Source: Candidatus Acidiferrales bacterium (GTDB lineage: Bacteria > Chloroflexota > Limnocylindria > P2-11E). From it: a stretch of 64,000 bases of DNA. Each line of letters opens with the position of its first letter. Position 1 is the stretch's first letter. The translations under genes were made by a program, and so were the position numbers. This document shows, piece after piece, positions 47,049-64,000 of this stretch. The DNA lies in assembly GCA_035631715.1 (NCBI GenBank), contig DASQIF010000042.1, positions 1,582 through 65,581 of the forward strand. Direction: 5' to 3'. Under the pieces are notes generated by a model. The model saw only the letters and a program-made list of their open reading frames with translations. It ran no database searches and was not told the origin of the DNA.

Positions 47049-48050
47049 CTATCGGGGCGGCCTCAGCGCGTAGTCGGCGCCCATCGCGACGCCGACGAGC
47101 CCGGAGAGGTTCGCGAGCGAGAACACGATCCGCGTCTCCTCGCCGCCGGCGCGCACGCCAACGGTGATGCCGTTGCGGCGCGGCGGGAGACACACGATGT
47201 CGCCGCGCTCGGTCGCGAACGACTCGTCGTCGACGTCGATGATCGGCCTTCCGGCGAGGACGTAGGCGTAGCCGTTCCCGGGCATGGTGAGCAGCTCGCT
47301 CTCCTGTCGCGGCTCGAGGCGCTGCGTGAACACGAACATCGGCGCGGTCCCGGCGAACCCGGGCGCCGCCGGGTGCACGTACCACCGGAGCTCGCCGAAG
47401 CCGTTCTTGTCGACGGGCAGGTCCGCTCGGCGGATGAGGGCCGGCGGATGCAGCGTCTCGCGCTGCCGGTCGCGGAGCTCGATGAGGCCCGCGAGGGTCG
47501 GCGATGACGGCGCGCTCGCGACGCCGCGATCGACGGCCTTCCCGGCCTTGGCCGCCTCCCATTTCGACTCGCGCGTCTGCGGCTCGAGCTGCACCATCTC
47601 CGCCCCAAGCCCCACCACGAGCGGCTCGTAGATGATGCCCATGAATTTCGACGGCCGGTCGTCGCGCGCGCGGAAGTGCTGGTGGTCGAGACCGCCCGGG
47701 ACGATCGGGAGGAGCACGGCGTCCTCCGCGGTCCAGTCGAAGCGCTGTCCGTTCACGACGCTGTAACCGTCGCCCTCGACGCCGAAGATGGTGATGCCGC
47801 CCTGGTGGGTGTGACGGCCGCTCGGGACACCGGTGTGATCGCGAACGAAGACGACCCACTGCGTGAGAGCGAGCTCCTCGAACTGCGGCATCACGTAGAA
47901 CTGGCTCGTGCCCTGTCGACTGTCGACGACCGGCACGTCCGTCCTCTTGATGTGCAGCTTCCCGTAGTGCGCTCGCTTGTAGAGCTGCTCCCACCGGGTG
48001 AACAGGTCGTCGTAGTCGCGTCCGGTGGTCACGGTCACGGTGCGGCTCAC
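47049..48050 (-). CDS. Bicupin dioxygenase-like protein (gentisate/1-hydroxy-2-naphthoate 1,2-dioxygenase-like)
   Basis: It has two cupin barrels with His-rich motifs (HTHQGG in the first). A GTG start overlaps the IclR stop as GTGA. Confidence 0.65.
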   Translation of the reverse strand: MSRTVTVTTGRDYDDLFTRWEQLYKRAHYGKLHIKRTDVPVVDSRQGTSQFYVMPQFEELALTQWVVFVRDHTGVPSGRHTHQGGITIFGVEGDGYSVVNGQRFDWTAEDAVLLPIVPGGLDHQHFRARDDRPSKFMGIIYEPLVVGLGAEMVQLEPQTRESKWEAAKAGKAVDRGVASAPSSPTLAGLIELRDRQRETLHPPALIRRADLPVDKNGFGELRWYVHPAAPGFAGTAPMFVFTQRLEPRQESELLTMPGNGYAYVLAGRPIIDVDDESFATERGDIVCLPPRRNGITVGVRAGGEETRIVFSLANLSGLVGVAMGADYALRPPR

Positions 48051-48901
48051 GCGGATCTCCCGTTCATCGCTGTCTCGGGCAGCGCGCCGAAGTCGCGCGA
48101 CAGCTGCGACGCCGTCGCGAGGAGCGCGCGAGCCATGTGCGAGCTCGTGGACTCGGGCACCGACGCGCTCGTGCCGACGATGGCGACGGCGGCGATGCAG
48201 TGGTCGCCCTGGTACACCGGCGCCGCGAGGGCGCGGATCCCGGGTTCGACCTCGGATGCCTCGGCGATGCCCTCCTTGCGGATGCGACGCAGCTCGGCCG
48301 CGAGGCCGGTCTCGCGTCGCAGCGCGCGCCGTAGGCCGGAGATGTCCGACTCGGGCAGGAACGCGCAGAACACGCGGCCCTGGCTCGAACGGAACGGCGT
48401 GAGACGCGCCCCGGTGTGGATGCTGATGCGCACGAGCCGGTCGGGGTTGTCGTCGACGCGCACGACGATCGGCGCCTCACCGTCCCAGATGGAGAGCACC
48501 ACCGTCTCGTTCACCTTGCGCACCAGGGCCTCCATGTGCGGGCCCGCGATCGCCACCACGGGCAGGCCCGCGCCGGCGGCCGCGGACAGCGTGAGGACCT
48601 GCGGGCCGAGGGTGTACTCGTTCGTCGCGGGATCGAATCGCAGCAGGTTCGCCTGTCGCAGCGCGACGGTGTAGCGGTGCGCGGTGGCGCGGCTCACGCC
48701 GAGGCGCGCGGTGATCTCCGACAGCGAGCGCCGCGGCCGGCCGACGGTGAAGAAGCCGAGGATGTGGGCCGCGCGGGCCACCGACTGGATCGCCGACTCG
48801 TGGCCATTGGCATCTTTCGTGGCCCGGAGAGCGGCGCGATCTCGCACGACGGCGAGTGGTGTAGCACGGGCCGCTGTGCGCGTCGAGGCGCGTCGCGTCA
48901 T
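48047..48901 (-). CDS. IclR-family transcriptional regulator
   Basis: It has an N-terminal HTH (IQSVARAAHILGFF...LSEITARLGVSRATAHRYTVAL) and a C-terminal IclR effector domain. It is embedded in the operon by overlaps on both sides. Confidence 0.85.
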   Translation of the reverse strand: MTRRASTRTAARATPLAVVRDRAALRATKDANGHESAIQSVARAAHILGFFTVGRPRRSLSEITARLGVSRATAHRYTVALRQANLLRFDPATNEYTLGPQVLTLSAAAGAGLPVVAIAGPHMEALVRKVNETVVLSIWDGEAPIVVRVDDNPDRLVRISIHTGARLTPFRSSQGRVFCAFLPESDISGLRRALRRETGLAAELRRIRKEGIAEASEVEPGIRALAAPVYQGDHCIAAVAIVGTSASVPESTSSHMARALLATASQLSRDFGALPETAMNGRSA

Positions 48902-49677
48902 GCGAGCACCTGCCGCGTCGCCGCGAGGACGCTCGCGAGACCCGCGCGCATGAACTGCACGTCCGAACCGATGAGGACGTAGCGGAGGCCCTGACCCGCG
49001 AAGGCCGCGAGCTGCTCCGCGTTCGCGACCCACGCGCCCATCGGCACCGACGCGCGGCTCGCCGCCGCCGCGATCTCGGCGACGCGCGCCTTGACGCGCT
49101 CATCGTCGAGCTTCCCCGGGCGGCCCATGTCGACGGACAGATCGGTCGTGCCGATGAAGGCGCAGTCCAGGCCGCGGAGGATGTCATCGAGGCCGTCGTC
49201 GGTCTTCGCCGTCTCGATCTGGCCGACGAGCAGCGGAAAGTCCCTGCTCTTCTGCAGATATGTCCCGAGCGGGATCCCGCTGTAGTCGGCCTGTGGATGC
49301 GCGAGGCTGACGCTTCGCGTGCCATCGGGTGCGTAGCGCGTGGCCGCGACGAGCGCGTCGCGATCCCGCCGCGAGCGCAGCGTCGACAGCTGGATGCCCG
49401 CGGCGCCCGCCTCGAGCATGCGGTTGATCTGGCCGGCGTCGCGCGTGGGCGTGCGCACGAGCATGGGCAGCCCAAGGGCCGCGCCGTGACGGAGCAGCGC
49501 GAGGATGGCGGCCTCGTCGAGCTGCGAGTGCTCCCCGTCGATGGTGGCGAGGTCGAAGCCGACCGATCGCACGAGGTCGACGCTCTCGAGCGCCGGAAGC
49601 TTCACGAAGGTCCCGACGAGCGGCGCGCCCGAGCCGAGCCGGTCGCGCAGCCGCGTCGCCGGGACGGCGTCGGTCAC
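48898..49677 (-). CDS. HpcH/HpaI aldolase-family protein (2-keto-3-deoxy acid aldolase)
   Basis: It starts with GTG 2 nt after the upstream stop. It matches the HpcH_HpaI consensus (LVGTFVKLP, IDGEHS, GQIETA). Confidence 0.8.
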   Translation of the reverse strand: MTDAVPATRLRDRLGSGAPLVGTFVKLPALESVDLVRSVGFDLATIDGEHSQLDEAAILALLRHGAALGLPMLVRTPTRDAGQINRMLEAGAAGIQLSTLRSRRDRDALVAATRYAPDGTRSVSLAHPQADYSGIPLGTYLQKSRDFPLLVGQIETAKTDDGLDDILRGLDCAFIGTTDLSVDMGRPGKLDDERVKARVAEIAAAASRASVPMGAWVANAEQLAAFAGQGLRYVLIGSDVQFMRAGLASVLAATRQVLA

Positions 49678-49679
49678 GT

Positions 49680-50570
49680 TCAGTTCAGGCCGAGGACGCG
49701 CGAGGGATTGTCGCGGACCATCTTTCGCAGATCGCGTTCGCTCACCCCGAGGTCGTTCAGCTCGCCGAGCAGCTTCTTGAACGACTCGACCGGGAGCGGG
49801 TTGTTCACCTGACCGAGATCGCTCCCGATGCTCGTGCGGTCCGCGCCGACGAGGTCGATCCAGCCCTTCAGCTTCGCCGCATCCCAGTGATAGAACTCCG
49901 ACGCCTCGTCGTACATGCAGCACTCGTGCTCGATGAGCGCGCCGGTGTCCGCGAACTTCACGACCTGCTCGCGCGTCGCCTCGATGACGTACTCGGGGTG
50001 GTTCACCACCATGCGCTTCACGCCGGTGTCGCGCGCCGCCTCGAGCAGGATCTGGATGCGGTCCGGCGCCTGGTGTCCCGCGGCCACGACCGCGTCGGCG
50101 TCGGCGATCATCTTGAGGATCACCGGGACCTCCGGCCGGAGCGATCCCTGCTCGTCGAGGATGTCGACGATGTCTGGCTTGCGCAGCGGGACGCTCGGCT
50201 TCGGGAACTTCAGATCGGGATGCGCGGCCTGGTGCTCCTGATGGCGGCGCGCGGAGATCGTCGGGAACCACACGATCTTTGCGCCCATCTTGAGCGCGAG
50301 GTCGACCGCCGAGGGATTCAGGCCGCCGACCATCGAGTTGAGCGCGATCGATCCGAACACCTTCGTCTTGATGCCGTCGAAGTACGGCGCCATCGCGCGC
50401 ACGTCCATCACCGTGGGGTGGTGGTGCGACTTCACGACGATCGCGCGCATCCCCTCCTTGTCCGCCATGCGCGCCGCCTCGACGTGGTCCATGCGGCGCG
50501 GGAACGGCGAGGGACCCGAATGACAGTGCAGGTCGACCGCGCCCTCGAGGATGCGATCGATCGTGCTCAT
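49680..50570 (-). CDS. Amidohydro_2 (PF04909-like) TIM-barrel metal-dependent hydrolase/decarboxylase-family protein
   Basis: It has the N-terminal motif VDLHCH and a C-terminal PSRVLGLN typical of amidohydrolase-2. An ATGA overlap joins it to the upstream gene. Confidence 0.7.
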   Translation of the reverse strand: MSTIDRILEGAVDLHCHSGPSPFPRRMDHVEAARMADKEGMRAIVVKSHHHPTVMDVRAMAPYFDGIKTKVFGSIALNSMVGGLNPSAVDLALKMGAKIVWFPTISARRHQEHQAAHPDLKFPKPSVPLRKPDIVDILDEQGSLRPEVPVILKMIADADAVVAAGHQAPDRIQILLEAARDTGVKRMVVNHPEYVIEATREQVVKFADTGALIEHECCMYDEASEFYHWDAAKLKGWIDLVGADRTSIGSDLGQVNNPLPVESFKKLLGELNDLGVSERDLRKMVRDNPSRVLGLN

Positions 50571-51241
50571 GCAGGCACGGCGGCACCGACGCCGAGCGCG
50601 CGCGCGACATCGGCGATGGATGTCACGAGACCGTGGAAGCGGTCGGTGCTCGCGAGGACGGCGTCGTGCGCGGCCTGGTCGGTATCGGACACGACCTCGG
50701 CCGGGACGAGCACGTCGTAATCGCGCATGTACGCGTCGCGGATGGTTGAGTCGATGCAGAACGAGGTCGTGGTCCCTGCGATGACCAGGACCTGGATGCC
50801 TTTCGCGCGCAGCTCCGTGTTCAGCGGGGTCTCGAAGAACGCGCTCGCGCGGTGCTTGATGATGACGTCGTCCTCGGGCCGCATCACGGCCTTGATCTCG
50901 TCGAGCAGCTCGGTGCCCCACGTGCCGCGGTAGCAGAGCTCGAGCTTCACGCCGCGGCGGTCGAGGTGCGAGGGGATGCGGCGGCGCTTACGCGCCTGAT
51001 CGTCCGGGTAATGGACCTGACGTGTATAGGTGACACGCGCGCCGGCCGCGCGTGCGATTCGGATCATCTCCACCACGGCGGGGATCGACGCTCGCGGCAT
51101 GGCGATGGCGTCGACGCCGAAGGCCTTCGCGCGCGCACCCTCCGGATGGCAAAAGTCGTTCTGCATGTCGACCACCAGGAGCATGACCTCCTTAGGGTCG
51201 AGCTTGGGCAATTCGAGCTTGCGCACCTTGTCCTCAGGCAT
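50567..51241 (-). CDS. Isochorismatase/cysteine-hydrolase-family protein (N-carbamoylsarcosine amidase / maleamate amidohydrolase-like)
   Basis: It has the family motif MLLVVDMQNDFC and a catalytic Cys (TTSFCIDST). Confidence 0.8.
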   Translation of the reverse strand: MPEDKVRKLELPKLDPKEVMLLVVDMQNDFCHPEGARAKAFGVDAIAMPRASIPAVVEMIRIARAAGARVTYTRQVHYPDDQARKRRRIPSHLDRRGVKLELCYRGTWGTELLDEIKAVMRPEDDVIIKHRASAFFETPLNTELRAKGIQVLVIAGTTTSFCIDSTIRDAYMRDYDVLVPAEVVSDTDQAAHDAVLASTDRFHGLVTSIADVARALGVGAAVPA

Positions 51242-51310: not shown

Positions 51311-53347
51311 TCATGCGGTATGCGGCGCGACACCGTGCGCGCGCGCGATCGCGTCCGCGGTGCGGTAGGCGAGCGCCCAGATCGTTCCGGTGGGGTTGAC
51401 CCCGGCCGACGTCACGAACGTTCCGCTGCCAGCGAGGTAGAGGTTCGGCACGTCGTGCGCCCGGCCGTCCGGGTCGGTCACGCTCTTCGCGGGATCGGTG
51501 CCCATGCGGACGGTCCCCATGTGGTGTCCGGCGTACATCCCGGCCGGCACGGCGGAGCGCTGCGTGAGCACCTCGCGCGCACCCGCTTCGCGAACGACCG
51601 CTGCGACGCGCTCGGCCATGAACGCTTCCATCTCGAGCGTGTTGCGGTGATAGCGGTAGTGGATGCGCAGCCCGGGTCCGCCGTCAGCGAGGCGCAGCGT
51701 GGGATCGAGCTCCACCCGGTTCTCCTCCATCGGGAGGTCCTCGCACAGGGCATACGCGCCGAGGTGGCGGGCATAGGCGCGCGCCAGGAAGTCACGGAAC
51801 TCCGCGCCCCACGGCGGCACCCCGCTCGGCAACGGCGCGGTGAGCCCGGCCGCGTTCGCGAACGCGAGCGGACCGCCGGCGAACACCAGCGGGATCCCGC
51901 CGAGGATCGCGGCGCCGCGCACGAACGAGGCGCCGTGGCGCTCGCGCGGGCGATCCTCGTCGAGGTCGTCGAAGGCGGCGGCGGTCTGCGGGCCGCGGTC
52001 GGCGTAGAGCAACTCCTCGAACGTGCCCCAGGCCATCACGTTGGTGTGGAACATGAGGTTGCGGCCCACCAGGCCGGACGAGTTGGCGAGCCCGCGCGGA
52101 TGCGCGCGCGACGTCGACAGGAGCAGCATGCGCGCCTGGTACGCCGCACCGTTCGCGAGGACGACCGTGCGTGCGGTGACGTCGCGGCGGCCGCGCGCGT
52201 CGCGATAGCGGACGCCGGTCGCCAGGCCGCTGCGCGGATCGGTAAGCACGCGCTCGACCCGCGCGCCGGCGCGGATGTCGATGCGACCGCTCCGTGCAGC
52301 GCGTGCGAGCACGCTGTCGCGGGTGTTCCCCTTCGCGAGGCGGAAGCACTCGTAGTGCGAGCAGTGACCGCACAGATCACAGGCGCGCCGGTCGCCGCGA
52401 TCCGCCGTCAGCACCGCGGCCGGTGTGGCGTACGGCGCGTATCCGAGGCGGCGCGCGGCGTCGGCAAATCGGGACGCCGCGCGCGTGAACGGCACGGCCG
52501 GAAGCGGGAACGGCGCGCTGCGGCGTCCCTCGAACGGATTCGCACCGGCGACGCCGGCGACGCCGATCGCGCGGTCCGCACGCGCGTAGTACGGCTCGAG
52601 GTCCTCATAGCCGATCGGCCAATCGGCGACGCTCGTGCCGGACACGTGACCCGACGTCGACCGCACGCGGAAGTCCGACGGGTGGAAGCGGTACGTGATC
52701 GTCGTCCAGTGCAGCGGGCCGCCGACGCCGATGTTGCGCGCGAGGTACGAGCCGCGCATGACCAGCCCGTCGTTGACCACGAGGTTCTCGGGCTCGTTCC
52801 AGAAGAGCGCGCGCCGCACCTGGAACTCGCGCTCGTCGGTGCTCGCGCGACCGGCGGCCGGTCCAGCCTCGACGGCGATGACGCGCAGCCCGGCCTCGGC
52901 GAGCTCGGCCGCGATGACGCCGCCAGCCGCGCCGAGACCGACGACGATCACGTCGGCGTCGTCGCCGCCGCGACGCGTCTTGATCTTGGGCGGCACCCAC
53001 GTATGCAGCGCACCGGCGGTGGCCGCGACCGGCCGCGCCTCGGCCGCCTCGCGCGTCGTGAAGCCGCGCGGCTGCGGATCACCGACCGCGCCGAGCAGCC
53101 GCCAGCCCCACATCCCGCGGTTGCCGCCGTAGCGCGGATGCGCGAACGCGGCCTCGAGCGCGACGAGACGGAGCGCGAAGAACGCCGACGGTGATTCCTG
53201 TCGAAGCGCGTCGAGCGAAATGGTGCGAAGGATGCCGACCGTGCGACGCAGCGCGGCGCGCTCTGCGGGCGTCGCGTCCGTGAGCCAGCGCGCGGCGTAC
53301 GACGCCGCGCCCGCATCGGCGACACCGGGGACGATCTGATCGAGCAC
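51311..53347 (-). CDS. GMC-family FAD oxidoreductase with an N-terminal gluconate-2-dehydrogenase subunit-3-like domain (fusion)
   Basis: The N-terminal ~90 aa end in HPRYGGNRGMWGW (gluconate 2-DH subunit-3-like). An FAD GxGxxG follows (IVVGLGAAGGVIAAELAEAG), with GMC C-terminal motifs (GTVRMG, TFVTSAGVNPT). It starts with GTG. Confidence 0.75.
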   Translation of the reverse strand: MLDQIVPGVADAGAASYAARWLTDATPAERAALRRTVGILRTISLDALRQESPSAFFALRLVALEAAFAHPRYGGNRGMWGWRLLGAVGDPQPRGFTTREAAEARPVAATAGALHTWVPPKIKTRRGGDDADVIVVGLGAAGGVIAAELAEAGLRVIAVEAGPAAGRASTDEREFQVRRALFWNEPENLVVNDGLVMRGSYLARNIGVGGPLHWTTITYRFHPSDFRVRSTSGHVSGTSVADWPIGYEDLEPYYARADRAIGVAGVAGANPFEGRRSAPFPLPAVPFTRAASRFADAARRLGYAPYATPAAVLTADRGDRRACDLCGHCSHYECFRLAKGNTRDSVLARAARSGRIDIRAGARVERVLTDPRSGLATGVRYRDARGRRDVTARTVVLANGAAYQARMLLLSTSRAHPRGLANSSGLVGRNLMFHTNVMAWGTFEELLYADRGPQTAAAFDDLDEDRPRERHGASFVRGAAILGGIPLVFAGGPLAFANAAGLTAPLPSGVPPWGAEFRDFLARAYARHLGAYALCEDLPMEENRVELDPTLRLADGGPGLRIHYRYHRNTLEMEAFMAERVAAVVREAGAREVLTQRSAVPAGMYAGHHMGTVRMGTDPAKSVTDPDGRAHDVPNLYLAGSGTFVTSAGVNPTGTIWALAYRTADAIARAHGVAPHTA

Positions 53348-53388: not shown

Positions 53389-54813
53389 TCAGCCGCGGTC
53401 CAGCAACAGCGACATGCCGTCCACCATGTTCGTCATCTTGCCGAGGAACAGGCTGCCCTTCGCGATAAACAGCGCGTTGCGGAGCGAGCCATCGCGGAGC
53501 TTCGGCAGCGCGTGCGCGAGGTATGGGAGCGCGGCGGGGATGTGCCCCTGCGTCGGGACGAAACCCGGCATGCCGTGCACGCGCTCGAAACCGTCGACCT
53601 CTTCGCGCTTCATCTCGCCGCGCTGCACGCCGAGCGCGGCGATGATGCGGTAGTTCGTGCGCGGGACATTGCCGCTCCCCGCGGGCACGGTGATCTCGGG
53701 GTTGTGCAGCTCGACCGCGTACTTGTCGACGTCGGGGATGCGCAGGCCGAGATGACCGAGAGGCTCAGACACGAGCGCCTCGTAGATGGCGCCAGCGGAA
53801 CCGCCCGACGCGACGGTGTGCTTTCCCACCGCGTCGAGGCGCATGCGGACGCCGCTGCCGTCCGCGGGGCCGACGAGGATCGCCACGGACGCGAGGCAGT
53901 CCTCGAGCAGCGGCATGTCCTTCTGCATGTGGCCCAGCATCTTCATGCCGAGCTTCGCGAGCGATCCACCGCCGACGACGATCACGTTCTTGTACACGCC
54001 GCCCTGCACCAGCGCGCCCGCGAGCACGAGCGCGTGCACCGGCGCGCAGCAGAACGCCTTCACGTCCGAGCCGGTCGCCTGCGTGCAGCCGGCCATCTCG
54101 GCCATGGCCTTCGAGATGCTCCCGCCGCCGCGCTGGTAGCGGTCGCCGACCGCCTCCTCGCCGCAGCCGAGCAGGTACTCGACCTCGCCCGGCTCCATCT
54201 TCATCTGCGCGAGCAGCTCCTTCAGCGCGAGCGCGCCGGAGGCCTTGCACGCGAGGTTCTCGATGAGGATGTCCGCGGTCTGGCTCGAGTCTCCGGGATA
54301 GCCGTTCGCGATGCGGCCGACCTCGGATCCGTCCGCGGCGTTCAGTGAGATCGATCCGTCACTCGAGGCCGGCGGCTTCGCCGCCTTCACCGCGCGCTCG
54401 AGCTCGGCGTCGGCGAACAGGCCGGTGGCGCGGAGCAGATCGCGCGAGCGTTCGAGGCGCGACTTGTCGATGTCGAGGATGCCGAAGTCGTCGGCCATCT
54501 GGAGCAGACCCCAGAAGTGGTCCTCACCCACGATGCGACCCGCGGGTCCGGTCGCGCGCGCCCCCTCGTCACCGTGGCGCCACCACGGCTCGGGCACGCT
54601 CCAGAGCCACTCCGGGCCGTGATTGCCGATGAAGACCTGGTTCGGACCGTACGCGACCGCGTCGTCGAACGAGCGCAGGTGCGGTCGCATCTTGTCGAAG
54701 AGGCCGGGCTCGCGCGCGAGCTCGCGCGTCGGCTTCGAGCCATAGCGAAGAAGACCCGGGGTGTGGGAGATCACGCATGCGATGCCGCGGATGGTGGGGA
54801 ACGTCTCAGTCAT
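53389..54813 (-). CDS. grdC: Glycine/sarcosine/betaine reductase complex component C beta-subunit-like protein (GrdC-like)
   Basis: The N-terminus (GIACVISHTPGLLRYG...LRSFDDAVAYGPNQVFIG) matches my recollection of GrdC. Its start overlaps the grdA stop as ATGA. The assignment is from memory. Confidence 0.6.
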   Translation of the reverse strand: MTETFPTIRGIACVISHTPGLLRYGSKPTRELAREPGLFDKMRPHLRSFDDAVAYGPNQVFIGNHGPEWLWSVPEPWWRHGDEGARATGPAGRIVGEDHFWGLLQMADDFGILDIDKSRLERSRDLLRATGLFADAELERAVKAAKPPASSDGSISLNAADGSEVGRIANGYPGDSSQTADILIENLACKASGALALKELLAQMKMEPGEVEYLLGCGEEAVGDRYQRGGGSISKAMAEMAGCTQATGSDVKAFCCAPVHALVLAGALVQGGVYKNVIVVGGGSLAKLGMKMLGHMQKDMPLLEDCLASVAILVGPADGSGVRMRLDAVGKHTVASGGSAGAIYEALVSEPLGHLGLRIPDVDKYAVELHNPEITVPAGSGNVPRTNYRIIAALGVQRGEMKREEVDGFERVHGMPGFVPTQGHIPAALPYLAHALPKLRDGSLRNALFIAKGSLFLGKMTNMVDGMSLLLDRG

Positions 54814-55277
54814 GACCCGAGGGTACGCTCGCGCACTTTGCGGATGCTCTGCCAGATGTCGTCGGTCTGCATGGCGACCTCAGAGAGACCGATCTGGTCC
54901 TGGTAAATGGACGCGTCGGCCTTCTCCCGAACCTCTGGTTCGGTCACGTGATAGACGGGGAGTCCCAACGAGACTCCGGCCAGCGGACCTGTGTATGTCG
55001 GATCGCCTGCGGTGACCGTCTCAGCCATCATCTCGACGTACGCGGGCTCGGCCGCTCCGAGGATCACTACCAGCCCGTCCTTGCCCTGCGTGTCGTAGAT
55101 GCGCTTGATCTCGGTCTGCTCATCCAGGTCCGAGGCACCGGCGCTCGTTCAGACGAAGCACTGATTCAGCTCGAGCAGCACTTCGGCGCCGGCGCTCCGC
55201 GCCACCGCCGCGATCGCTGTCGCCTGCACTCCGTCACGCTCGCCGATCGCGATGACCTTCTTGCCTTGAAGATCCAA
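54810..55277 (-). CDS. grdA: Glycine/sarcosine/betaine reductase selenoprotein A (GrdA) with in-frame UGA-selenocysteine at 55149..55151
   Basis: A TTG start is preceded by a strong GGAGGGAGGTGA SD. Reading through the in-frame TGA gives MDLQGKKVIAIGERDG...NQCFV-U-TSAGASDLDEQ...AETVTAGDPTYTGPLAGV, which is collinear with the GrdA consensus including the CFVUT motif. The ORF table lists only the 85-aa C-terminal part. Confidence 0.8.
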
Positions 55278-55355: not shown

Positions 55356-56660
55356 TCAGGACTCGACCGACCCCGAACGGCCGAAGCCGATGGGATTCGC
55401 GGCGCCGGCGTAGAAGGTGCGCCGCTCGAGGGTGATGGCGGTGTCGATCGGGTACGGCACGCCCCCGATCTCCGGACGCACGCGGATGGCCTGATCCCCA
55501 GCCACGCGATCCATCTTCGGGAGCGCCAGCGGCTCGTCGAGGTTCCCCGTGCTCACGATGGCCACCGCCTCAGGCACCGCGAACGGCAACGGGTAGTCCG
55601 AGCCGTCCGGCCCGGCGTGCTCCCACGTGATGAGCACGGTCTTGATGCCACGTCGCTCGCATTCCTGTATCGCCAACATCACCTCGGTGACGTTATTCCC
55701 GGCACCGCCCAGTGTGAACACGACGCCGTTCGCGCCGAGCAGCGTCGCGCTCTCCGCGATGCGCAGGCCGACGCGCTGCTTGTCCTCGTAGAGATAGAAG
55801 TGACCGCGGTGCAGCACGATGCCCGCGAAGTCCCAGCGCTTCCCGTGGGCGGCGACGAGGTGCTCGACGACGGCGTTGTTCTGATGCATCCAGGTGTGGA
55901 GCTTCACGCCGTGGCCGCCCAGGCCGCCCGCGGTGAGCGCCCCGTCGGCGAGCTCGTTCGGATGCACGAGCGTGGGCTGGAGCTCGTCGAGCACGCGTCC
56001 GTACAGACGGCTGCGCATGAACACGCCCTGCGACTGCACCTGATACGCGTAGACGATGCGGGGCAGCGCGGCCGCGGGGCGCGAGAGGTCGCGGTGCTCG
56101 ACCGACGACGGCGCGGCGTCGCGCGCGGTGAGCGCGAGCGCGCGCGCGACCTTCTCGCCGGCGAGGAGCAGGCCGCGCTCGTACCCCTCGTGGTCGACGC
56201 CGTCCTTGAACGTGAACCGGAGCACGACGAGATGCAGGTTGGCGTACGGCTGCAGGTCCGCCCCCGGCCCGGCCATGTCGAGCACGCTGTCGTGCGGAAC
56301 GAAGAGACCTTTCGCGCCGAGCCAGGGAACAGGTCCCGACGTGACGACGGCGACGCCGCGGAGGCGATCGGTGCGGCCGGAGCCGACGGGCTCGACCGCC
56401 GAAAGCAGACCGGGGAACACACCGCCGGTGCCGCCGGACTTCGCGCGTGGCTCGATGACGTCGGTGATCTGCGGGATGCGCACGCTCTCGTGCGGGCGCA
56501 CGAGCATGACCTCGACGCCGGCGAACGCGGGATCCGAGGACGCGAGCGTCGCGATCTCGTCGCGCGCGATGGTCAGCTTGCCGCCGGCGAAGGCGGTGCG
56601 GTCGCCGAACGCGACGTCCGCGACGTCGAAGGTGCCTAGCTCGAGCGTCTTCGCGCTCAT
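55356..56660 (-). CDS. grdE: Glycine/sarcosine/betaine reductase component B alpha/beta proprotein-like (GrdE-family)
   Basis: Its motifs resemble GrdE/PrdA (VEVMLVRPHESVRIPQITDVIEPR, YAYQVQSQGV, WMHQNNAV, IKTVLITWEHAGPDGS). Its start overlaps the grdB stop as ATGA. The assignment is from memory. Confidence 0.6.
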   Translation of the reverse strand: MSAKTLELGTFDVADVAFGDRTAFAGGKLTIARDEIATLASSDPAFAGVEVMLVRPHESVRIPQITDVIEPRAKSGGTGGVFPGLLSAVEPVGSGRTDRLRGVAVVTSGPVPWLGAKGLFVPHDSVLDMAGPGADLQPYANLHLVVLRFTFKDGVDHEGYERGLLLAGEKVARALALTARDAAPSSVEHRDLSRPAAALPRIVYAYQVQSQGVFMRSRLYGRVLDELQPTLVHPNELADGALTAGGLGGHGVKLHTWMHQNNAVVEHLVAAHGKRWDFAGIVLHRGHFYLYEDKQRVGLRIAESATLLGANGVVFTLGGAGNNVTEVMLAIQECERRGIKTVLITWEHAGPDGSDYPLPFAVPEAVAIVSTGNLDEPLALPKMDRVAGDQAIRVRPEIGGVPYPIDTAITLERRTFYAGAANPIGFGRSGSVES

Positions 56661-57970
56661 GACGCACCGCGGAAGAGGGTGGCCTTGTCGATCTTCTCGC
56701 CGAGCGCGCCGAGGGCCGCGCGCACCAGACCGATACGCAGCGCGTGGTCGCCGGCCGGCTCGAGCGTCGGATCGCCGCAGGGGTGCGGGATCTTCACGCC
56801 TCGGATGACGCGGTTCGCGCCGAGGTCCGCCGCGACCGGGCCGAGCGCGGTGATCATCGCGGTGGGCAGCCCGGCACGCTCGAGTTCCGCACTGATCGCT
56901 GCACCGCAGCGATTGCAGGTCCCTCAGGTCGCGGTGAGGATGACCCCGTTCACGCCGCGTTCCTTCAGCTGCGCGGCGATCTCGCGGCCCATGCGGCGCG
57001 CCTCCACCACCGCGGTGCCGACACCGGTCGTGACGATGTAGCGCTCGTCCAGATCGCCGAACGCGTGCGCGTGCTGCAGCTCGCGCACCGCGTCGAGGGG
57101 CATGACGTAGTTCGGATTGCTGTTCGCCGCGCTCGCGTCGTAGCCAGAGTGGATCGACTCATACTTCCCCGGCTCGAGCTGTTCGAGGCCGGCGATCGGG
57201 TACGCGCGCCACTCCGTGGAGTTCGACTGCTTCAGTCCGTCGGGATTGCCCTTGGGGACGATGCCGCCGGTCGTGATGAGCGCGATCCGGGCCGACGCGA
57301 CGTCGGCCAGAGGCGCCGCCGGCGCGACGTGCTCGACCGCTGGGAGCGTGAGCTCGGTCGCGAACTTCTGCCCGGCCATCCGCGCCACGAGCATGTCGAG
57401 CGCGCGCTCCGCGGCCGGACGGTCGAGGATGGCGGTTCGGTGCACGCCCTTGCCGTAATAGCCCTCCACCGCGGCCGCGCCGATGACCTCATGGCGGCCG
57501 AGCCGGATCGCGAACCGCGCGAGCCGTCCAAGGGTCTCGTTCATGCCGAGCGCCGTCGGCGTGGTGGGAAGGACGTAGGTCTTCGCGCGATACAGGTCGA
57601 CCCCCGGGTTCTCCGCGTTCATCGCGGTCACAGCCGGGATCCCGAGCGCCGCGGCGCGCGCGCAGGCCTCGCCACACGCGAGCCCGTAGCGGCCGGCGTT
57701 GAACGCCGGTCCCGCGACGAGGACGTCGGCGCGCTGCTCGCGCAGCGCGGCCGTCACCGCGGCGCCGAACGCCTCGAGGTCGGTGGCCGCGCGGTTGTCG
57801 CCGCAGATGAACGTCGCGACCACCTGGCCGGCGTCGCCGAGCTCCTTCTGCAGACCGATGCCGGGGCCGATCGGACCGCCGCGTACGGTGAAGGGGTGAT
57901 CCCCGGCCTCCTCCGCGCCGATCCGGCCGAAGAACTGATTGACGTAGTGGACGACGCGCAGGCTCGCCAT
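56657..57970 (-). CDS. grdB: Glycine/sarcosine/betaine reductase selenoprotein B (GrdB-family) with in-frame UGA-selenocysteine at 56924..56926
   Basis: Two table ORFs (56924..57970 and 56657..56857) are in the same frame and separated only by TGA. Readthrough gives a 437-aa protein collinear with GrdB (VVHYVNQFFG, GPAFNAGRYG, IPAVTAMNAENPGVD, VILTAT-U-GTCNRCGA, ANRVIRGVKIPHPCGDP). An AGGAGA SD lies upstream of the ATG. Confidence 0.85.
56892..56918 (-). promoter_or_regulatory. SECIS-like stem-loop immediately 3' of the grdB UGA (8-bp perfect stem AUCGCUGC/GCAGCGAU, GGU apical loop, plus a 3-bp lower stem)
   Basis: It is seen directly in the sequence. The mRNA reads UGA GGGAC CUGca AUCGCUGC GGU GCAGCGAU CAG. 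An apical loop with GGU 15-25 nt after UGA is characteristic of bacterial SECIS elements bound by SelB. Confidence 0.55.
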
Positions 57971-58074: not shown

Positions 58075-58989
58075 GTGAGATACATCCTCCAGCGCCTCGC
58101 GCAGGGGTTGCTCGTGCTCCTCGGCGTCACGACCATCGTCTTCGCACTCACCTTCGTGGCAGGCGACCCGGTCTCGACGCTCGCGCCGCTCGAGGCGACG
58201 CCGGAGGAGCGCGCCGCGTTCGCGCACAACATGGGCCTCGATCGTCCGATCCCGGTGCAGTACGTCGACTTCCTCGCGCACGCGGTGCGCGGCGACTTCG
58301 GTCTGTCGTACAGCAGCCACGAACCGGCGATGGGCGAGGTGCTCGACCGCCTTCCGGCGACGATCCTCCTCACCGCGGCCGCGGTGCTCTTCGCGCTCGT
58401 CGTCTCCGTCCCGCTCGGCCTGCTGGCGGCGATGAACCACGACCGCTGGGTCGACGTCATCGCGCGGCTCTTCGCGTTCCTCGGCCAGTCGATACCGGTG
58501 TTCCTGCTCGGGATCGTCCTCATCATCGTGTTCGGGGTCGATCTCCACTGGCTGCCGTCCTCGGGCAGCGGCTCGTGGAAGAACCTCGTCATGCCCGCCG
58601 TGGCCGTCGGCTCGTTCTCGGCCGCCGTGCTGGCGCGGCTGCTCCGCTCGAGCCTGCTCGAGGTCCTCGGCCAGGAGTACATCCGCACCGCCTACGCGAA
58701 GGGCCTCCGCGGGCGCGTCGTGGTGGTGCGTCACGCGCTGCGTAATGCCGCGCTCCCGTTCGTCACGATGGTCGGCCTGCAGGTCGGCTTCCTGCTCTCC
58801 GGCGCGGTCGTCGCCGAGACGATCTTCGCGTACCCCGGCATGGGTCGGCTCGCGGTCACGGCCATCTCGCGCAAGGACGTCCCGGTCATCCAGTCGTTCG
58901 TCATCGTGGCCGCGGTGATCGTCATCCTGGCGAACCTGTTCGTCGACCTCGTCTACACGCGGATCGATCCCCGCATCCGTCTGCGGTGA
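58075..58989 (+). CDS. ABC transporter permease (DppB/OppB-like, peptide/nickel family)
   Basis: It starts with GTG, has 6 TMs and carries the EAA-loop region (YIRTAYAKGLRGRVVVVRHALRNA). Confidence 0.85.
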   Translation: MRYILQRLAQGLLVLLGVTTIVFALTFVAGDPVSTLAPLEATPEERAAFAHNMGLDRPIPVQYVDFLAHAVRGDFGLSYSSHEPAMGEVLDRLPATILLTAAAVLFALVVSVPLGLLAAMNHDRWVDVIARLFAFLGQSIPVFLLGIVLIIVFGVDLHWLPSSGSGSWKNLVMPAVAVGSFSAAVLARLLRSSLLEVLGQEYIRTAYAKGLRGRVVVVRHALRNAALPFVTMVGLQVGFLLSGAVVAETIFAYPGMGRLAVTAISRKDVPVIQSFVIVAAVIVILANLFVDLVYTRIDPRIRLR

Positions 58990-59831
58990 GGCGCCGCTGG
59001 ATCTCGCGCGCACGCACCATCCCCGGCTACGCCGGCCTGGCGGTGCTCCTGCTGCTGATCGCCGCGGCCTTGTTGGCGGACCAGATCGCGCCGACCGCGG
59101 ACACGCAGCTGCTCCTGCAGCGGCTCGACGCGCCGACGTGGGCCGGCGGGGCGCACGGATACCTCTTGGGCTCCGACAATCTCGGCCGGGACCTCTTCCT
59201 CCGGATGATCCAGGGCGCGCGGGTCTCGCTCACCGTCGGCTTCATCGGCGTGGTCGTATCCGGCGGCATCGGCATCACCCTCGGGCTCATCGCGGGATAT
59301 CTCGGTGGTAGCTGGGATCGCGTGATCATGCGCGTCGCTGATGTGCAGCAGGCGATCCCGGTCCTGGTCCTCGCCGTGGCGATCGCCGCGATCCTGCGGC
59401 CGAGCGTCGCGAACCTCATCGCGGTGCTGGCGTTGACGACGTGGTTCACGTTCGCGCGCGTCGTGCGCGCGGAGGTCCTCGGTATCCGCGAGATGCTCTA
59501 CGTCGAGTCCGCGCGGGTCGTGGGCGCGAACGCGCGCCGCATCATCGTGCGCCACGTCCTGCCGAACGCCGCGGCATCGATCATCGTCATCGCGACGCTC
59601 CAGGTCGGGAACCTCATCCTCTTCGAGGCGAGCCTGTCGTTCCTCGGTGTGGGCGTGCCGGTGACGACGCCCACCTGGGGCCGGATGGTGTTCGACGGCC
59701 TCGACTACGTTTCGACCGCCTGGTGGATCGCGCTCTTCCCGGGGATCGCGGTCATGACCACGGTCTTCGCGACGAACCTGGTCGGCGACTGGCTCCGCGA
59801 CGCGCTCGACCCGCGGCAGCGCGAGCCCTAG
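58986..59831 (+). CDS. ABC transporter permease (DppC/OppC-like)
   Basis: A GTGA overlap joins it to the previous permease. It has the EAA-loop (ARVVGANARRIIVRHVLPNA). Confidence 0.85.
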   Translation: MRRRWISRARTIPGYAGLAVLLLLIAAALLADQIAPTADTQLLLQRLDAPTWAGGAHGYLLGSDNLGRDLFLRMIQGARVSLTVGFIGVVVSGGIGITLGLIAGYLGGSWDRVIMRVADVQQAIPVLVLAVAIAAILRPSVANLIAVLALTTWFTFARVVRAEVLGIREMLYVESARVVGANARRIIVRHVLPNAAASIIVIATLQVGNLILFEASLSFLGVGVPVTTPTWGRMVFDGLDYVSTAWWIALFPGIAVMTTVFATNLVGDWLRDALDPRQREP

Positions 59832-60432: not shown

Positions 60433-61509
60433 TCAGGCGTTCACCAGCCCGATCATGCGCCGGAACGCGCGCGCCAACTCGACGTAGCCCTCCGACCAGC
60501 TCGCGGAGGGCGGCGGCAGCGCGTACAGGCGAACGCCGGTCACGGCGGGCAGCTCGCGGGTGATCGCGCGGATGCGCTGTGCACACTCCTCCGGGGTCCC
60601 CGCGACCGCGAACTGGTCGAGGATGTCGTCGGTGATGAGGTCGGCCAGCTCCTTCGGCAGATAGGGCGACGTCCAGAAGTCCCACTTCGCGAGCGCCGAT
60701 ACCACGTGATCGGGGACGCGGAACTCGTCCGGTCGCTTCCAGTCGGCGCGCTCGCGGGAGTACTTCTCCGCGCCGGCCATCCACAGGATCCCCTGCGCCG
60801 CGGGCCGCGTCGCGGCGCGTTTCGCGGCGCGTCCGTCCTCGCTCACCGAGCAGGGCATGGTGATGTCGATCTCGAAGGAGCCGGGCTTTCTCCCCGCCTT
60901 CGCCGCGCCGCGCGACACGTGCTCGAGCTCATCGCGGCGATGCCCGAGACCCATGAAGAACGCGGCGAGGTGAACGATGTCGGCGAGCTCACCGGCGAGT
61001 TCGATCATGCGTTTGCCGCGCGCGGCGATGAGGATGGGCAGGTCGGCGCGGTACGGCTTGAAGTCGAGCTTCGCGCCCTCGACGCTGATGACCTTGCCGC
61101 GATACGTCACCCTCTCGCCGCGGAACATGCCACGGCAGATGGCGATCGCGTCGCGCACCGCCTCCAACGGATGCGCGCGCTCGTGCGGCCAGAGCGCGGG
61201 CTGCTCGAGCCCGCCGCCGAGACCGAGCACGACGCGACCCTGCGACAGGTCGTCCATCGTCGCCATCGCGACCGCGGTGAGCGACGGATGGCGTACGAAC
61301 GGATCGGTCACCAGGCTCTCGAGCTCGAGACGTGTCGTGGCCTGCAGGCACGCGGTCATCTCGACAAAGAGGTCGGGATAGAAGCGCCAGTCCGCGACGC
61401 CGAAGCGCTGGAAACCCGCGGCCTCGTAGTGCGGCGCGAGCGCGACGAAGCGTTCGGCCGGCTCGCGCCACAGCGATGTCGGGAGGTCGAAGGTGAACTT
61501 CAGGCTCAT
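60433..61509 (-). CDS. LLM-class flavin/F420-dependent oxidoreductase
   Basis: It has a luciferase-like TIM barrel (GRVVLGLGGG). The last 230 aa are ~65% identical to the paralog at 63215..64000. Confidence 0.8.
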   Translation of the reverse strand: MSLKFTFDLPTSLWREPAERFVALAPHYEAAGFQRFGVADWRFYPDLFVEMTACLQATTRLELESLVTDPFVRHPSLTAVAMATMDDLSQGRVVLGLGGGLEQPALWPHERAHPLEAVRDAIAICRGMFRGERVTYRGKVISVEGAKLDFKPYRADLPILIAARGKRMIELAGELADIVHLAAFFMGLGHRRDELEHVSRGAAKAGRKPGSFEIDITMPCSVSEDGRAAKRAATRPAAQGILWMAGAEKYSRERADWKRPDEFRVPDHVVSALAKWDFWTSPYLPKELADLITDDILDQFAVAGTPEECAQRIRAITRELPAVTGVRLYALPPPSASWSEGYVELARAFRRMIGLVNA

Positions 61510-61551: not shown

Positions 61552-63144
61552 TTACTTGCTGACCGTCGTGTTGGTGGCGACGATCGGCGTGACGCCGTGG
61601 GCCTTCCAGCCCTGGACCTTGCTCGAGAGCCCGGTGATCGAGTTGTCGCCGCTGATGTAGATGCCGAACGGATCGGTCGCGAAGACCTTCTCGGCCCCCG
61701 TGTACGCCGAGGTCTGTGTGGCCGCGTCGAGCGTGCCGGCGCCCTGATCGAGGAACTTCTGCGCGTCGGCGTTGCAGAAGTTGGAGAGGAACTGCTTGCA
61801 ACCGGCGAGCAGGTTGAGCAGATCCGGGTGCGTGAAGGTGTTCCAGGTCACGAAGTACATCTGGTCGAACCCATGGGACACCCACTTGTTGTTGAACACG
61901 TCCGTGGGCATCACGTTGAGGTTGACCTTGATGCCGACCTGCGCGAGCTGCGCGACGATCGCCTGCGGCACGTCCTGCTTCGCGGTGTTGGAGACGTCCG
62001 CGTCGATGGTGAAGCCGTTCGGGTACCCGGCGTCAGCAAGGAGTTGCTTCGCCTTCGCCTGATCGAACGCGAATGGCTTGAGATCGCTCGTGAAGCCCAT
62101 GGTGAGGTCGGTGACGCCACCGGCCAGCTGCCGCGCGTGGCCGCCGAGGACGGTCTTGATGATCGTCGCGGTGTCGACCGCGTAGTTCATCGCCTGGCGG
62201 ACGCGGGTGTCGAGCAGTGGCTTCGCCGACGGAGATGTGCTGAGGGTGTTGTAGAAGGCCCAGTTGTAGACCGGACTCTTCGACTCCACCACGTTGAAGC
62301 CACCCGACTTCAGCGGGTCGACCTGGTCGGTCGGAAGGTCCTGGACCATGTCGACCGAGCCGGCCTTCAGCTCGGAGACGCGCGTCGCGGCGGTCGGGAT
62401 CGCGCGGAAGACGAGCGTCTTCACGAGCGGCTTGCCCTTCCAGCTTCCGGACCAGTAGTCGGCGTTCGCCTCCATGGTGATGCGGTCGTCCTTGGCCCAC
62501 GACACGAACTTGAACGGGCCGGTGCCGATCGGCTTCGAAATGAAGCCGGCCTGGCCGACCGACTGGTAGTACTTCGACGGGAGGATGGACAGGTTGTTCG
62601 CGAACGTGTCGAGGATGCGCGGGTCGACCTTGTTCAGGTTCACGGTGACGGTGTTGTCGTCGACGACCGTCGCGCCGTCCACGGCGCCGAAGTTCCCGGC
62701 CTGACCCGAGTTCAGGTCCTTGCTCTTCAGCGTGTCGATCGAGAACTTCACGTCGGCGGCCGTCAGCGGATCGCCGTTGTGGAACTTCACGCCCTTGCGC
62801 AGCGTGAAGGTGATGTTCTTTCCGTCCACCTTCCACGACTCCGCGAGCGCCGGCACGATCTTGCCGTCGTAGTCCCACTCGACGAGCGCGTCGAACACGT
62901 TGTAGCGGTACGAGATGCCGACGATGTCGTAGCTGAGGTACGGATGCGTGCTCTGGATGTCGCCGCGCATCGCGATGGTGAGCGTGCCCTGCGGGCCGGC
63001 CGGCGTCGGGGCCACCGTCGCCGCGGCCGTGCCGGGCGCGCCCGAGGCGCCCGGCGACGCCTGCTGCGTGCAGGCGACGACGAACGCGAGCGCGAGCGGA
63101 AGCGCGAGCATCCGCGCGAGCTTTGGGAACCGTCCGAACGTCAT
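61552..63144 (-). CDS. ABC transporter substrate-binding lipoprotein, family 5 (DppA/OppA-like)
   Basis: It has a signal peptide and lipobox (LAFVVAC). It matches the SBP_bac_5 pattern (ESWKVDGKNITFTLRKGVKFHNGDPLTAADVKFS). Confidence 0.85.
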   Translation of the reverse strand: MTFGRFPKLARMLALPLALAFVVACTQQASPGASGAPGTAAATVAPTPAGPQGTLTIAMRGDIQSTHPYLSYDIVGISYRYNVFDALVEWDYDGKIVPALAESWKVDGKNITFTLRKGVKFHNGDPLTAADVKFSIDTLKSKDLNSGQAGNFGAVDGATVVDDNTVTVNLNKVDPRILDTFANNLSILPSKYYQSVGQAGFISKPIGTGPFKFVSWAKDDRITMEANADYWSGSWKGKPLVKTLVFRAIPTAATRVSELKAGSVDMVQDLPTDQVDPLKSGGFNVVESKSPVYNWAFYNTLSTSPSAKPLLDTRVRQAMNYAVDTATIIKTVLGGHARQLAGGVTDLTMGFTSDLKPFAFDQAKAKQLLADAGYPNGFTIDADVSNTAKQDVPQAIVAQLAQVGIKVNLNVMPTDVFNNKWVSHGFDQMYFVTWNTFTHPDLLNLLAGCKQFLSNFCNADAQKFLDQGAGTLDAATQTSAYTGAEKVFATDPFGIYISGDNSITGLSSKVQGWKAHGVTPIVATNTTVSK

Positions 63145-63214: not shown

Positions 63215-64000
63215 CTACGCCATCACCGGCCGCGCCCTGCTGTTGACCAGGCGGGCGACGCGACCAAATCCCTTCACCATGTCGACATATCCCTCGAAGA
63301 GCGGCTTTCCGGCGGGTGGCACGGCATAGATGCGTACCCCGGTCACCTCGGGAAGTTCACGCTCGAGCGCACGGAGGCGCTCGGCGCACTCCTCGGGCGT
63401 GCCGGCGAGCGCGAACTGGTCCAGCACGTCGTCGGTGATGAGGTCGGCGAGGCGGTCCGGGAATTCGGCCTGTGTCCAGAAATCCCATGAGGCCAGCGCC
63501 TCGACGACGTCTTCCGGCACCGAGAACTGCGGCGGCCGCACCCAGTCCTTGCGATCGCGCGAGTAACGCTCGGCGGCGGCCGTCCACAGGATGCCCTGCG
63601 CGGCCGGGCGCTTCGCGGCACGGCGGGCGGCCTTCCGATCCGCGGAGACCGAGCACGGCATCGAGATGTCGATCTCGAACGTGCCCATGCGCCGTCCGGC
63701 GCGCTCGGCTCCGCGGCGCACAATCTCGAGGTTGTCGCGATGATGCCCGGCGTTCACGAAGAAGGACGCGAGGTGGACGATGTCGCCGAGCTCGCCAGCG
63801 AGCTCGAGCATCGTCGCGCCACGGGCGGCGATGAGGATCGGAAGGTCCTTTCGGTACGGCGTGAAGTTGAGCCCGGCCTTCTCCACGCTGATGACGTTCC
63901 CCTGGTACGTCACCGTCTCGCCACGGAACATGCGGCGGCAGATCTCGACCGCGTCGCGGACGGCCTCACGGGGATGCGGCCGGTCGTAGCCCCAGAACGT
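63215..64000 (-). CDS. LLM-class oxidoreductase paralog, 5'-truncated by the window edge
   Basis: The ORF reaches the window end. It is collinear with the C-terminal 230 aa of the LLM at 60433..61509. Confidence 0.7.
   Translation of the reverse strand, partial: TFWGYDRPHPREAVRDAVEICRRMFRGETVTYQGNVISVEKAGLNFTPYRKDLPILIAARGATMLELAGELGDIVHLASFFVNAGHHRDNLEIVRRGAERAGRRMGTFEIDISMPCSVSADRKAARRAAKRPAAQGILWTAAAERYSRDRKDWVRPPQFSVPEDVVEALASWDFWTQAEFPDRLADLITDDVLDQFALAGTPEECAERLRALERELPEVTGVRIYAVPPAGKPLFEGYVDMVKGFGRVARLVNSRARPVMA

Follow-up and report, generated by a model that had tools for sequence, protein, structure and literature searches.

Reductases of the GrdB family, with their selenocysteine (Sec) codon, their selenocysteine insertion sequence (SECIS) and their grdA-grdB selenoprotein operons, are already textbook knowledge (PMC13188914). 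Glycine and sarcosine reductases require a pyruvoyl carbonyl to polarise the C-N bond (PMC10838667, PMC9908766), and partner subunits that stay uncleaved are known, namely GrdI of betaine reductase and FarE of fluoroacetate reductase (PMC10838667). According to a recent review, selenoproteins are rarely retained by aerobic bacteria (PMC13188914); Sec use is documented in Chloroflexota, with the Dehalococcoidia among the selenoprotein-richest bacteria (PMC13326102). The locus described here lies on the minus strand of a 64-kb stretch of contig DASQIF010000042.1 (hereafter the window, meaning the whole stretch of DNA that was analysed), and begins with a grdB-like gene containing an in-frame UGA. 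A preliminary description of the same DNA had proposed that this is a single GrdB-family selenoprotein gene which naive calling of open reading frames (ORFs) splits at its Sec codon, and our analysis supports that proposal. We consider it highly probable that the locus encodes one 437-amino acid (aa) selenoprotein B, into which Sec would be inserted at the UGA through a SECIS_4-type hairpin, and that the gene leads a grdB-grdE-grdA-grdC operon whose substrate is probably neither glycine nor sarcosine.

Compared with the glycine reductase subunits GrdB and GrdE of Peptoclostridium/Clostridium, the window proteins belong to the same Pfam and NCBIfam families, with Sec in a UxxCxxC motif at the homologous codon, a SECIS of the same position and core, an adjacent GrdE-family partner, and GrdA (CxxU) and GrdC proteins that score above the equivalog cut-offs. 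In contrast, the window GrdB is only about 42% identical to its glycine reductase counterpart, stays below the cut-off of the GrdB model TIGR01917 and fails the GrdB motif; the window lacks the Asn-Cys processing site, and GrdD, TrxA/B, GrdX and a glycine riboswitch are not found nearby; and its host is a high-GC organism with oxygenase genes in the vicinity.

A single grdB-like gene interrupted by an in-frame UGA

56657..57970, minus strand: grdB-like selenoprotein B gene, 437 aa including Sec349, with the UxxCxxC motif U-GT-C-NR-C
56924..56926, minus strand: in-frame UGA, Sec349 of the grdB-like gene
56895..56913, minus strand: grdB bacterial SECIS (bSECIS) hairpin, 8-bp stem, loop G22-G23-U24 (counted from the U of the UGA)

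The two minus-strand ORFs from which the preliminary description had started do lie in one frame and are parted only by the TGA at 56924..56926. ORF 56924..57970 (348 aa, ATG start) terminates at this codon and the frame stays open as far as the stop at 56657..56659, read-through giving 437 residues. The second ORF had been placed at 56657..56857; its frame was right, but the read-through segment really covers 56657..56923, the listed ORF merely beginning at the first ATG (56857), and the first 22 codons after the UGA are conserved without any start codon among them. Around Sec349 the sequence reads VILTAT-U-GTCNRCGAAIS, plus ANRVIRGVKIPHPCGDP, and the hallmark context quoted earlier, together with its 3' continuation, was exact to the letter. 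With Cys put in place of the stop, the grdB-like protein scored 417 bits against the PF07355 profile (cut-off 22) and 437.8 bits against TIGR01918 (glycine/betaine/sarcosine/D-proline family reductase selenoprotein B; cut-off 65.45), the latter match extending over residues 5-433 and spanning the UGA. The read-through product had been called collinear with the selenoprotein B family, and both models indeed match it from end to end.

The interrupting codon is strictly conserved. In the DNA of grdB homologues from species-representative genomes and metagenomes, whose similarity runs on past the aligned position, the codon was TGA without exception, first in a set of 84 genes and then in one of 171, the latter set including sequences from Paraclostridium, Peptostreptococcus, Synergistota, Dehalococcoidia, Rokubacteria-type bacteria, Entotheonella and deltaproteobacteria. 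This recurrence excludes chance and also a sequencing error, which the preliminary description had still allowed for. Full-length homologues are rare in the databases; they carry Cys at the Sec position, apart from one with Ser and several with Trp, and the Cys residues and the invariant TGA agree with the expectation that the position should be occupied by Cys or Sec. The Trp residues are what translation of TGA under code 4 would give, the data themselves showing the residue alone. Close relatives (64-92% identity), retrieved in a search of 5.8 billion proteins, are nearly all called as products of about 348 aa and therefore end at the same codon. NCBI names a 64%-identical Chloroflexota protein as a TIGR01918-type selenoprotein family member, although this entry is truncated at 346 aa.

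The coding sequence beyond the UGA behaves like that before it. Against nine close relatives, the ratio of nonsynonymous to synonymous substitution rates (dN/dS) was 0.05-0.35 for codons 13-88 after the UGA and 0.14-0.36 for the 300 codons before it, and the 11 SECIS codons showed zero amino acid changes in 8 of the 9 pairwise comparisons. By this measure, the codons downstream of the UGA are under the same purifying selection as those upstream. As an ordinary stop, TGA is used more often than any other codon in the window, where it ends 28 of the 49 family-supported genes, grdB and grdA among them, so the code is standard and UGA has not been reassigned. In addition, the grdB-like stop TGA overlaps the ATG of the grdE-like gene (ATGA), and thus ties translation of this gene to ribosomes that have already read through the UGA. 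Judged by these comparisons, the UGA at 56924..56926 is genuine and recoded as Sec.

The Sec codon of grdB was rendered as Trp in seven public calls (P0073, P0075, P0083, P0089, P0111, P0112 and P0117). Presumably the gene caller had picked code 4, which would be another route to mis-annotation in the GrdB family.

A conserved hairpin downstream of the grdB UGA

A strong stem-loop had been reported immediately 3' of the codon. The 8-bp perfect stem (AUCGCUGC/GCAGCGAU) and the GGU loop are as described, but the hairpin occupies nt 14-32 counted from the U of the UGA and so has its onset 10 nt past the codon. Residues G23-U24 of the loop lie at the same distance from the UGA as G23/U24 of the Escherichia coli fdhF SECIS.

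Comparison over the whole family (119 distinct homologous sequences; alignment A1, ungapped) revealed that the stem is 88.6% paired. Doubly compensated cells numbered 85, against 22.5 ± 3.5 in shuffled alignments, none of the 500 shuffles attaining 85, and the covariation score of 0.268 compared with values of at most 0.096 in slid controls. Three pairs covary: 15-31 (UA in 83 and GC in 21 of the 119 sequences), 18-28 (UA in 77, CG in 41) and 19-27 (UA in 94, AU in 21), and in each of them a synonymous third position offsets an amino acid-changing first position. Within the clade of the window protein, the 32 nt 3' of the UGA are near-invariant, synonymous sites included, and later codons are free to vary.

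The hairpin shares with the Rfam element SECIS_4 (RF01990) its site after the UGA, the GGU loop and the 6-bp core stem, in which one U-A pair is replaced by a compensatory C-G in the window. Unlike the classical elements, only the core of the model aligns (positions 7-29 of 38; 17.1 bits, E = 0.093 in 81 nt), whereas SECIS_4 recognises classical grdB, grdF and grdH genes with 49-66 bits right after their TGA. At gathering threshold SECIS_4 was found in 0 of 8 window-clade loci, and Rfam as a whole gave no match in the window or its clade. It is the family-wide comparison, through pairing and covariation, and not thermodynamics that sets the hairpin apart from chance, and on this comparative basis we identify it as the family-wide grdB SECIS, with a SECIS_4 core.

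A second selenoprotein gene, grdA

54810..55277, minus strand: grdA selenoprotein A gene, 155 aa, TTG start after GGAGGGAGG, with the CFV-U motif (C40-FV-U43)
55149..55151, minus strand: second in-frame UGA, Sec43 of GrdA, in a canonical CxxU motif
55110..55134, minus strand: predicted grdA SECIS-like hairpin, nt 18-22/38-42 and 25-27/34-36, loop GAUGAG

The preliminary description was silent on a second selenoprotein gene, grdA, located 1.5 kb downstream of grdB. The sequence at Sec43 of GrdA is CFV-U-TSAGASDLDEQTEIK, and the read-through product scored 188.3 bits against NF040748 (cut-off 130), matching model positions 1-149 of 151. Naive ORF calling splits this gene as well, into pieces of 42 and 85 aa, and the aligned codon was TGA in all 49 grdA homologues. 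A hairpin is predicted after the UGA in the window and six close relatives; in other clades a hairpin occurs in a different register at a similar distance from the UGA, and RNAalifold applied to all grdA sequences returned no consensus structure.

The operon and its GrdE-like partner subunit

55356..56660, minus strand: grdE-like partner subunit gene, 434 aa, PF09338 at 318.7 bits
53389..54813, minus strand: grdC (protein C beta subunit), 474 aa, NF040746 at 549 bits (cut-off 450); ATG start overlapping the stop of grdA

The four genes follow each other in the order grdB-like, grdE-like, grdA and grdC, with ATGA overlaps at grdB/grdE and grdA/grdC, and a scan for promoters and terminators found nothing inside the operon. 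Arrangements elsewhere vary: in L003, a soil metagenome-assembled genome (MAG), grdE and grdA are separated by genes for a MarR regulator and an MFS transporter (3861..5667), and the 8.6-kb contig L085 carries two GrdB paralogues of different clusters, at 7039 (plus strand) and 4900 (minus strand), both with TGA and with grdA in between.

Alignment of the GrdE-like subunit revealed a marked difference at the site of self-cleavage. Classical GrdE and GrdG read SGN/C-VSACDK (the slash standing between Asn and Cys), whereas the window protein reads AGGL-GGHGVK, with Leu where the classical cleavage Cys becomes the pyruvoyl group; its single Cys is residue 334. Since no Cys, Ser or Thr is present at the self-cleavage site, the GrdE-like subunit should be unable to form a pyruvoyl group, and because glycine and sarcosine reductases need that group, neither compound is a likely substrate. 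The best NCBIfam match of the GrdE-like subunit was GrdG, at 249.5 bits against a cut-off of 780, and the FarE model gave 104.7 bits (cut-off 675). A cleavage Cys is also lacking in the partner of the NCBIfam-verified GrdH of L070 (SGSF-MPCSSK). The fluoroacetate reductase FarB/FarE of Cloacibacillus porcorum resembles the window system in that its E subunit is no proprotein, and it provides a precedent for non-amine X-CH2-COO- substrates; it differs in that FarB is reported to be without the CxxC, which the window protein keeps, and in its host, an anaerobic member of the Synergistota (PMC10838667). A further variant was seen in the acidobacterial MAG L005, where the partner of the GrdB copy at 3775 has Ser at the cleavage position (SGNS-AYQSLK) and may be a serine-derived pyruvoyl form.

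None of the models specific for one substrate accepted the window selenoprotein B. It scored 394 bits against the GrdB model TIGR01917 (cut-off 602.2), 446.5 bits against the GrdF model NF040794 (cut-off 800), the highest of the specific models, and 419.9 bits against the GrdH model NF040795 (cut-off 775), where the NCBIfam-labelled references reached 820 (GrdB, L080), 827 (GrdF, L065_12392) and 847 bits (GrdH, L070). The GrdB motif (PMC9751293) failed, as AHGGxD, RV[IL]PxD and TxGNxTxV are all absent from the protein. It also failed the GrdF motif of Nobu et al. (PMC9751293), a failure of little weight alone because the NCBIfam-confirmed GrdF control L065 missed that motif too. The alignment to characterised classes proposed earlier therefore placed the protein in the family without reaching any specific class, and the name grdB holds at the family level of TIGR01918 but not at the level of the glycine-, sarcosine- or betaine-specific models and motifs. 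At Rfam gathering scores no glycine riboswitch was found in the window or the clade loci; such a riboswitch lies upstream in five of six classical loci (L080, L076, L061, L055 and L065), where a SECIS_4 match above threshold is also present, and the window clade possesses an IclR regulator instead. On this sequence evidence, the substrate is most likely something other than glycine or sarcosine.

Genes for GrdD, thioredoxin and Sec insertion

Searches with tblastn for GrdD, TrxA, TrxB and GrdX gave no match in the window. In a survey of loci with at least 6 kb of flanking sequence, in which genes within 8 kb were counted as neighbours, GrdD lay near in 8 and TrxB in 9 of 15 classical-cluster loci, compared with 0 of about 29 loci of the non-classical clusters for either gene (0 of 5 in the window clade), where GrdA and GrdC were often near. 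Thioredoxin genes are housekeeping genes that can sit elsewhere in a genome. The pattern may mean that GrdD and the thioredoxin system are encoded away from the cluster, or it may point to a variant of protein C that resolves the acetyl thioester without GrdD. No tRNA-Sec was detected in the clade loci, and we infer that Sec decoding is provided by the host organism. The sole tRNA-Sec in 25 loci scanned was found in L074, an unrelated Solirubrobacteraceae MAG, at 4416..4506 (minus strand), about 5 kb from its grd cluster.

Clade and probable host

The nearest genomes are three soil MAGs of Candidatus Limnocylindria (Chloroflexota), L001, L002 and L003, whose GrdB proteins are 82, 80 and 74% identical to that of the window. 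L001 and L002, compared across about 20 kb each, and the Logan contigs L161 and L162 have the same gene order from the outer luciferase-like (LLM) oxidoreductase gene to the Rieske oxygenase, at 55-92% protein identity, a flavin reductase gene being the one exception to the synteny with L001 and L002. A contig from ENA shares the core, from the genes for the solute-binding protein and LLMs to the isochorismatase, and then diverges. The window protein belongs to a clade of 12 members that share 58% identity or more with each other and 50% or less with all other sequences, about equidistant from the GrdB, GrdF and GrdH references. The host is most likely a soil bacterium of Candidatus Limnocylindria, and is likely to be oxygen-using. 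The setting outside the clostridia, high in GC and rich in oxygenase and LLM genes, to which the preliminary description drew attention, is real but not unprecedented, as GrdB-family members occur widely, in MAGs of Chloroflexota, Rokubacteria-type bacteria, Entotheonella and deltaproteobacteria. Searches of the literature returned nothing for Limnocylindria together with selenocysteine, nor for GrdD-less clusters or the window clade, and no relative detectable by sequence was found in the PDB. Another Limnocylindria MAG, L059, harbours a classical-type cluster with an SGNC partner.

Genomic neighbourhood

51311..53347, minus strand: GMC-family FAD oxidoreductase gene, directly downstream of grdC, with an N-terminal extension of about 130 aa
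50567..51241, minus strand: isochorismatase-family amidohydrolase gene, weakly RutB/BiuH-like, conserved with the clade out to L163
about 49680..50570, minus strand: DUF6282 gene, with gene calls in the syntenic L161 and L162
48898..about 49590, minus strand: HpcH-family aldolase gene, with gene calls in the syntenic L161 and L162
48047..49033, minus strand: IclR-family regulator ORF, true start probably internal, syntenic
47049..48050, minus strand: cupin gene
45664..about 46983, minus strand: Rieske dioxygenase alpha subunit gene
45182..45667, minus strand: Rieske dioxygenase beta subunit gene
58075..59831, plus strand: two Opp/Dpp/Nik-type ABC permease genes, divergent from grdB
upstream side of grdB, divergent: flavin reductase gene, specific to the window
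60433..61509, minus strand: LLM (F420-type) oxidoreductase gene, syntenic
61552..63144, minus strand: SBP_bac_5 solute-binding protein gene
63215..63931, minus strand: second LLM gene, syntenic

Throughout the clade the GMC gene comes directly after grdC; it is retained in L001, L002, L161, L162 and the ENA contig, and the permease pair is present in every clade locus with flanking sequence, L163 included. Similarity of the GMC enzyme to BetA was marginal (18.7-36.8 bits); its N-terminal extension is kept in L001 and L002, with a weak Gluconate_2-dh3 match in a relative. The 570-aa mechanical ORF at 48898..50610 (minus strand) represents the DUF6282 and HpcH genes merged.

Hydantoinase A/B genes and an isochorismatase beside grdB/E in L163 prompted us to consider a route from creatinine or N-methylhydantoin through N-carbamoylsarcosine to sarcosine. 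This candidate was rejected as the main reading: the L163 hydantoinase genes accompany an Acetone_carb_G subunit and look like acetone carboxylase, the isochorismatase is only weakly RutB/BiuH-like, and the partner subunit cannot form the pyruvoyl group needed for sarcosine.

Five luciferase-like oxidoreductase genes occur in the window (15007..16020, 34971..35879, 42916..43884, 60433..61509 and 63215..63931). The two beside the grd transporter gave sub-threshold matches to F420-dependent (Mer-like) NCBIfam models and the other three matched Pfam Bac_luciferase alone, so that the "F420-using" genome context proposed earlier can be maintained only tentatively. Farther from the operon, a 1088-aa ORF (39653..42919, minus strand) fuses xanthine-dehydrogenase-family molybdopterin-binding domains with FAD-binding and CO_deh_flav_C domains (medium subunit), and at 31315..33273 (plus strand) a 469-aa ORF that matches no Pfam family precedes a gene for an Imm5-like immunity protein, and the two may make up a toxin-immunity pair.

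Proposed function and alternative explanations

The chemistry, the substrate class and the electron donor can be proposed by analogy with the characterised members of the family (PMC9908766, PMC13188914, PMC10838667). The GrdB/GrdE-like pair would bind a substrate of the X-CH2-COO- type, whose alpha-carbon would be attacked by the selenolate of Sec349, in the UxxCxxC motif; X would be displaced, and the carboxymethyl group would be handed to Sec43 of GrdA (CxxU). GrdC would then turn it into an acetyl thioester, and the selenide-sulfide of GrdA would be re-reduced by a dithiol system encoded elsewhere. Since the carbonyl is missing, X would be expected to be a group that leaves readily by itself, for example a quaternary ammonium (as in a betaine-like compound), a sulfonium or a halide. 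Import would probably proceed through the adjacent Opp/Dpp-type ABC transporter, and the GMC oxidoreductase and the ureido-type amidohydrolase may make or process the substrate. A bolder version, which we put forward as a serious possibility though not as the expected outcome, is a Grd-type enzyme for a substrate other than glycine, sarcosine, betaine, proline or fluoroacetate, with an unprocessed B subunit and no linked GrdD or thioredoxin, operating in a catabolic island of an oxygen-using soil Chloroflexota; this island would comprise the Opp-type ABC importer, the F420-type LLMs, the GMC oxidoreductase, the ureido-type amidohydrolase, the aldolase and the IclR regulator.

Among the alternatives for the substrate, an orthologue of betaine reductase (GrdH/GrdI), converting glycine betaine to trimethylamine and an acetyl unit and perhaps fed by a choline-dehydrogenase-like GMC enzyme, is possible but rather unlikely. 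It shares with the window system a Sec-containing B subunit, the need for GrdA and protein C, and an alpha subunit that remains uncleaved (PMC10838667); the gene next to grdC on its downstream side is consistently that of a GMC oxidoreductase, and some clade members have been labelled as betaine reductases by JGI pipelines. However, the GrdH model score (420 against a cut-off of 775) falls below that of the GrdF model, the mean identity of the window protein to the GrdH cluster is 41%, which places this cluster among the most distant ones, GrdI reads GSF-MPCSSK where the window has GGL-GGHG, the GMC enzyme is no more than marginally BetA-like, and the transporter is of the Opp/Dpp/Nik type (SBP_bac_5) and not of the OpuD/ProU type. 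A classical glycine or sarcosine reductase, serving Stickland-type energy conservation or the reductive glycine pathway, is less probable still. Sarcosine reductase (GrdF/GrdG) provides the top-scoring specific NCBIfam models for both window subunits, GrdA and GrdC exceed their equivalog cut-offs, and the lineage does possess a classical-type cluster, in L059. Nevertheless, the specific scores are far below cut-off (394 against 602 for GrdB, 446 against 800 for GrdF) and both motifs failed; the GrdG-type SGNC site is absent, Leu replacing the cleavage Cys in a partner with a single Cys, so there is no canonical pyruvoyl precursor; and neither a glycine riboswitch nor GrdD or Trx genes lie nearby.

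As for the UGA itself, we regard it as very improbable that the TGA is a true stop, whether in a pseudogene, through a sequencing error, or between a 348-aa N-terminal and a small C-terminal polypeptide. Such a stop would fit the 348-aa products called for nearly all close relatives and the lack of Sec machinery in the window, but neither error nor decay can account for a TGA that is kept in all 171 genes from different phyla. Moreover, the 22 conserved codons that follow it are under purifying selection and offer no start codon, the TGA precedes the CxxC part of the UxxCxxC redox motif, grdE has its start coupled to the stop that ends the read-through frame, and a second TGA occupies the Sec site of GrdA. 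A genome-wide reassignment of UGA (e.g. to Trp or Gly) has the slightest chance of all: Trp does stand at the Sec position in some database homologues, but this is as expected from code-4 translation, genuine full-length homologues have Cys there, and TGA serves as the stop of more than half of the family-supported genes, grdB and grdA included.

Several observations weigh against the proposal of a Sec-dependent operon acting on a substrate other than glycine or sarcosine. The fold energy of the grdB hairpin was no better than that of shuffled sequence (z = -0.02), single-sequence z-scores being uninformative because the window is 69% GC, and its SECIS_4 score lies below the gathering score of 38; the folding and bSECIS covariance checks suggested in the preliminary description were therefore positive for covariation and for alignment of the SECIS_4 core, but not for fold energy or the Rfam threshold. 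Informative covariation was absent from the grdA hairpin. The window, with about 49 annotated genes and no tRNA at all, contains no selA, selB, selD or tRNA-Sec, and the absence of GrdD, TrxA and TrxB extends to every clade locus, leaving the complex incomplete in cis. Finally, the substrate assignment draws on one absent processing site and on gene context, and the conserved transporter is not of a known betaine transporter type.

Implications

What makes this locus of interest is its probable aerobic soil host and a distinct clade with a non-pyruvoyl partner, an unusual conserved neighbourhood and no linked GrdD or thioredoxin genes. Rieske and extradiol dioxygenase genes occur no farther than about 8 kb from this operon for a Sec-dependent reductase, and their synteny with it is conserved. 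For annotation, the consequence is a systematic error that affects two selenoprotein genes in each genome of an abundant soil lineage: the 348-aa truncation appears in almost every public call, and the SECIS of the clade is missed by the current Rfam SECIS_4 model and by Rfam-based pipelines. The window clade and many other environmental GrdB clusters whose partners have no pyruvoyl site indicate that Grd enzymes act on a far broader range of substrates than their three or four characterised activities cover. If the bolder version set out above is true, Sec-dependent reductive C-X cleavage would extend into aerobic soil heterotrophs, and release of the acetyl unit might bypass the acetyl phosphate made by GrdD.

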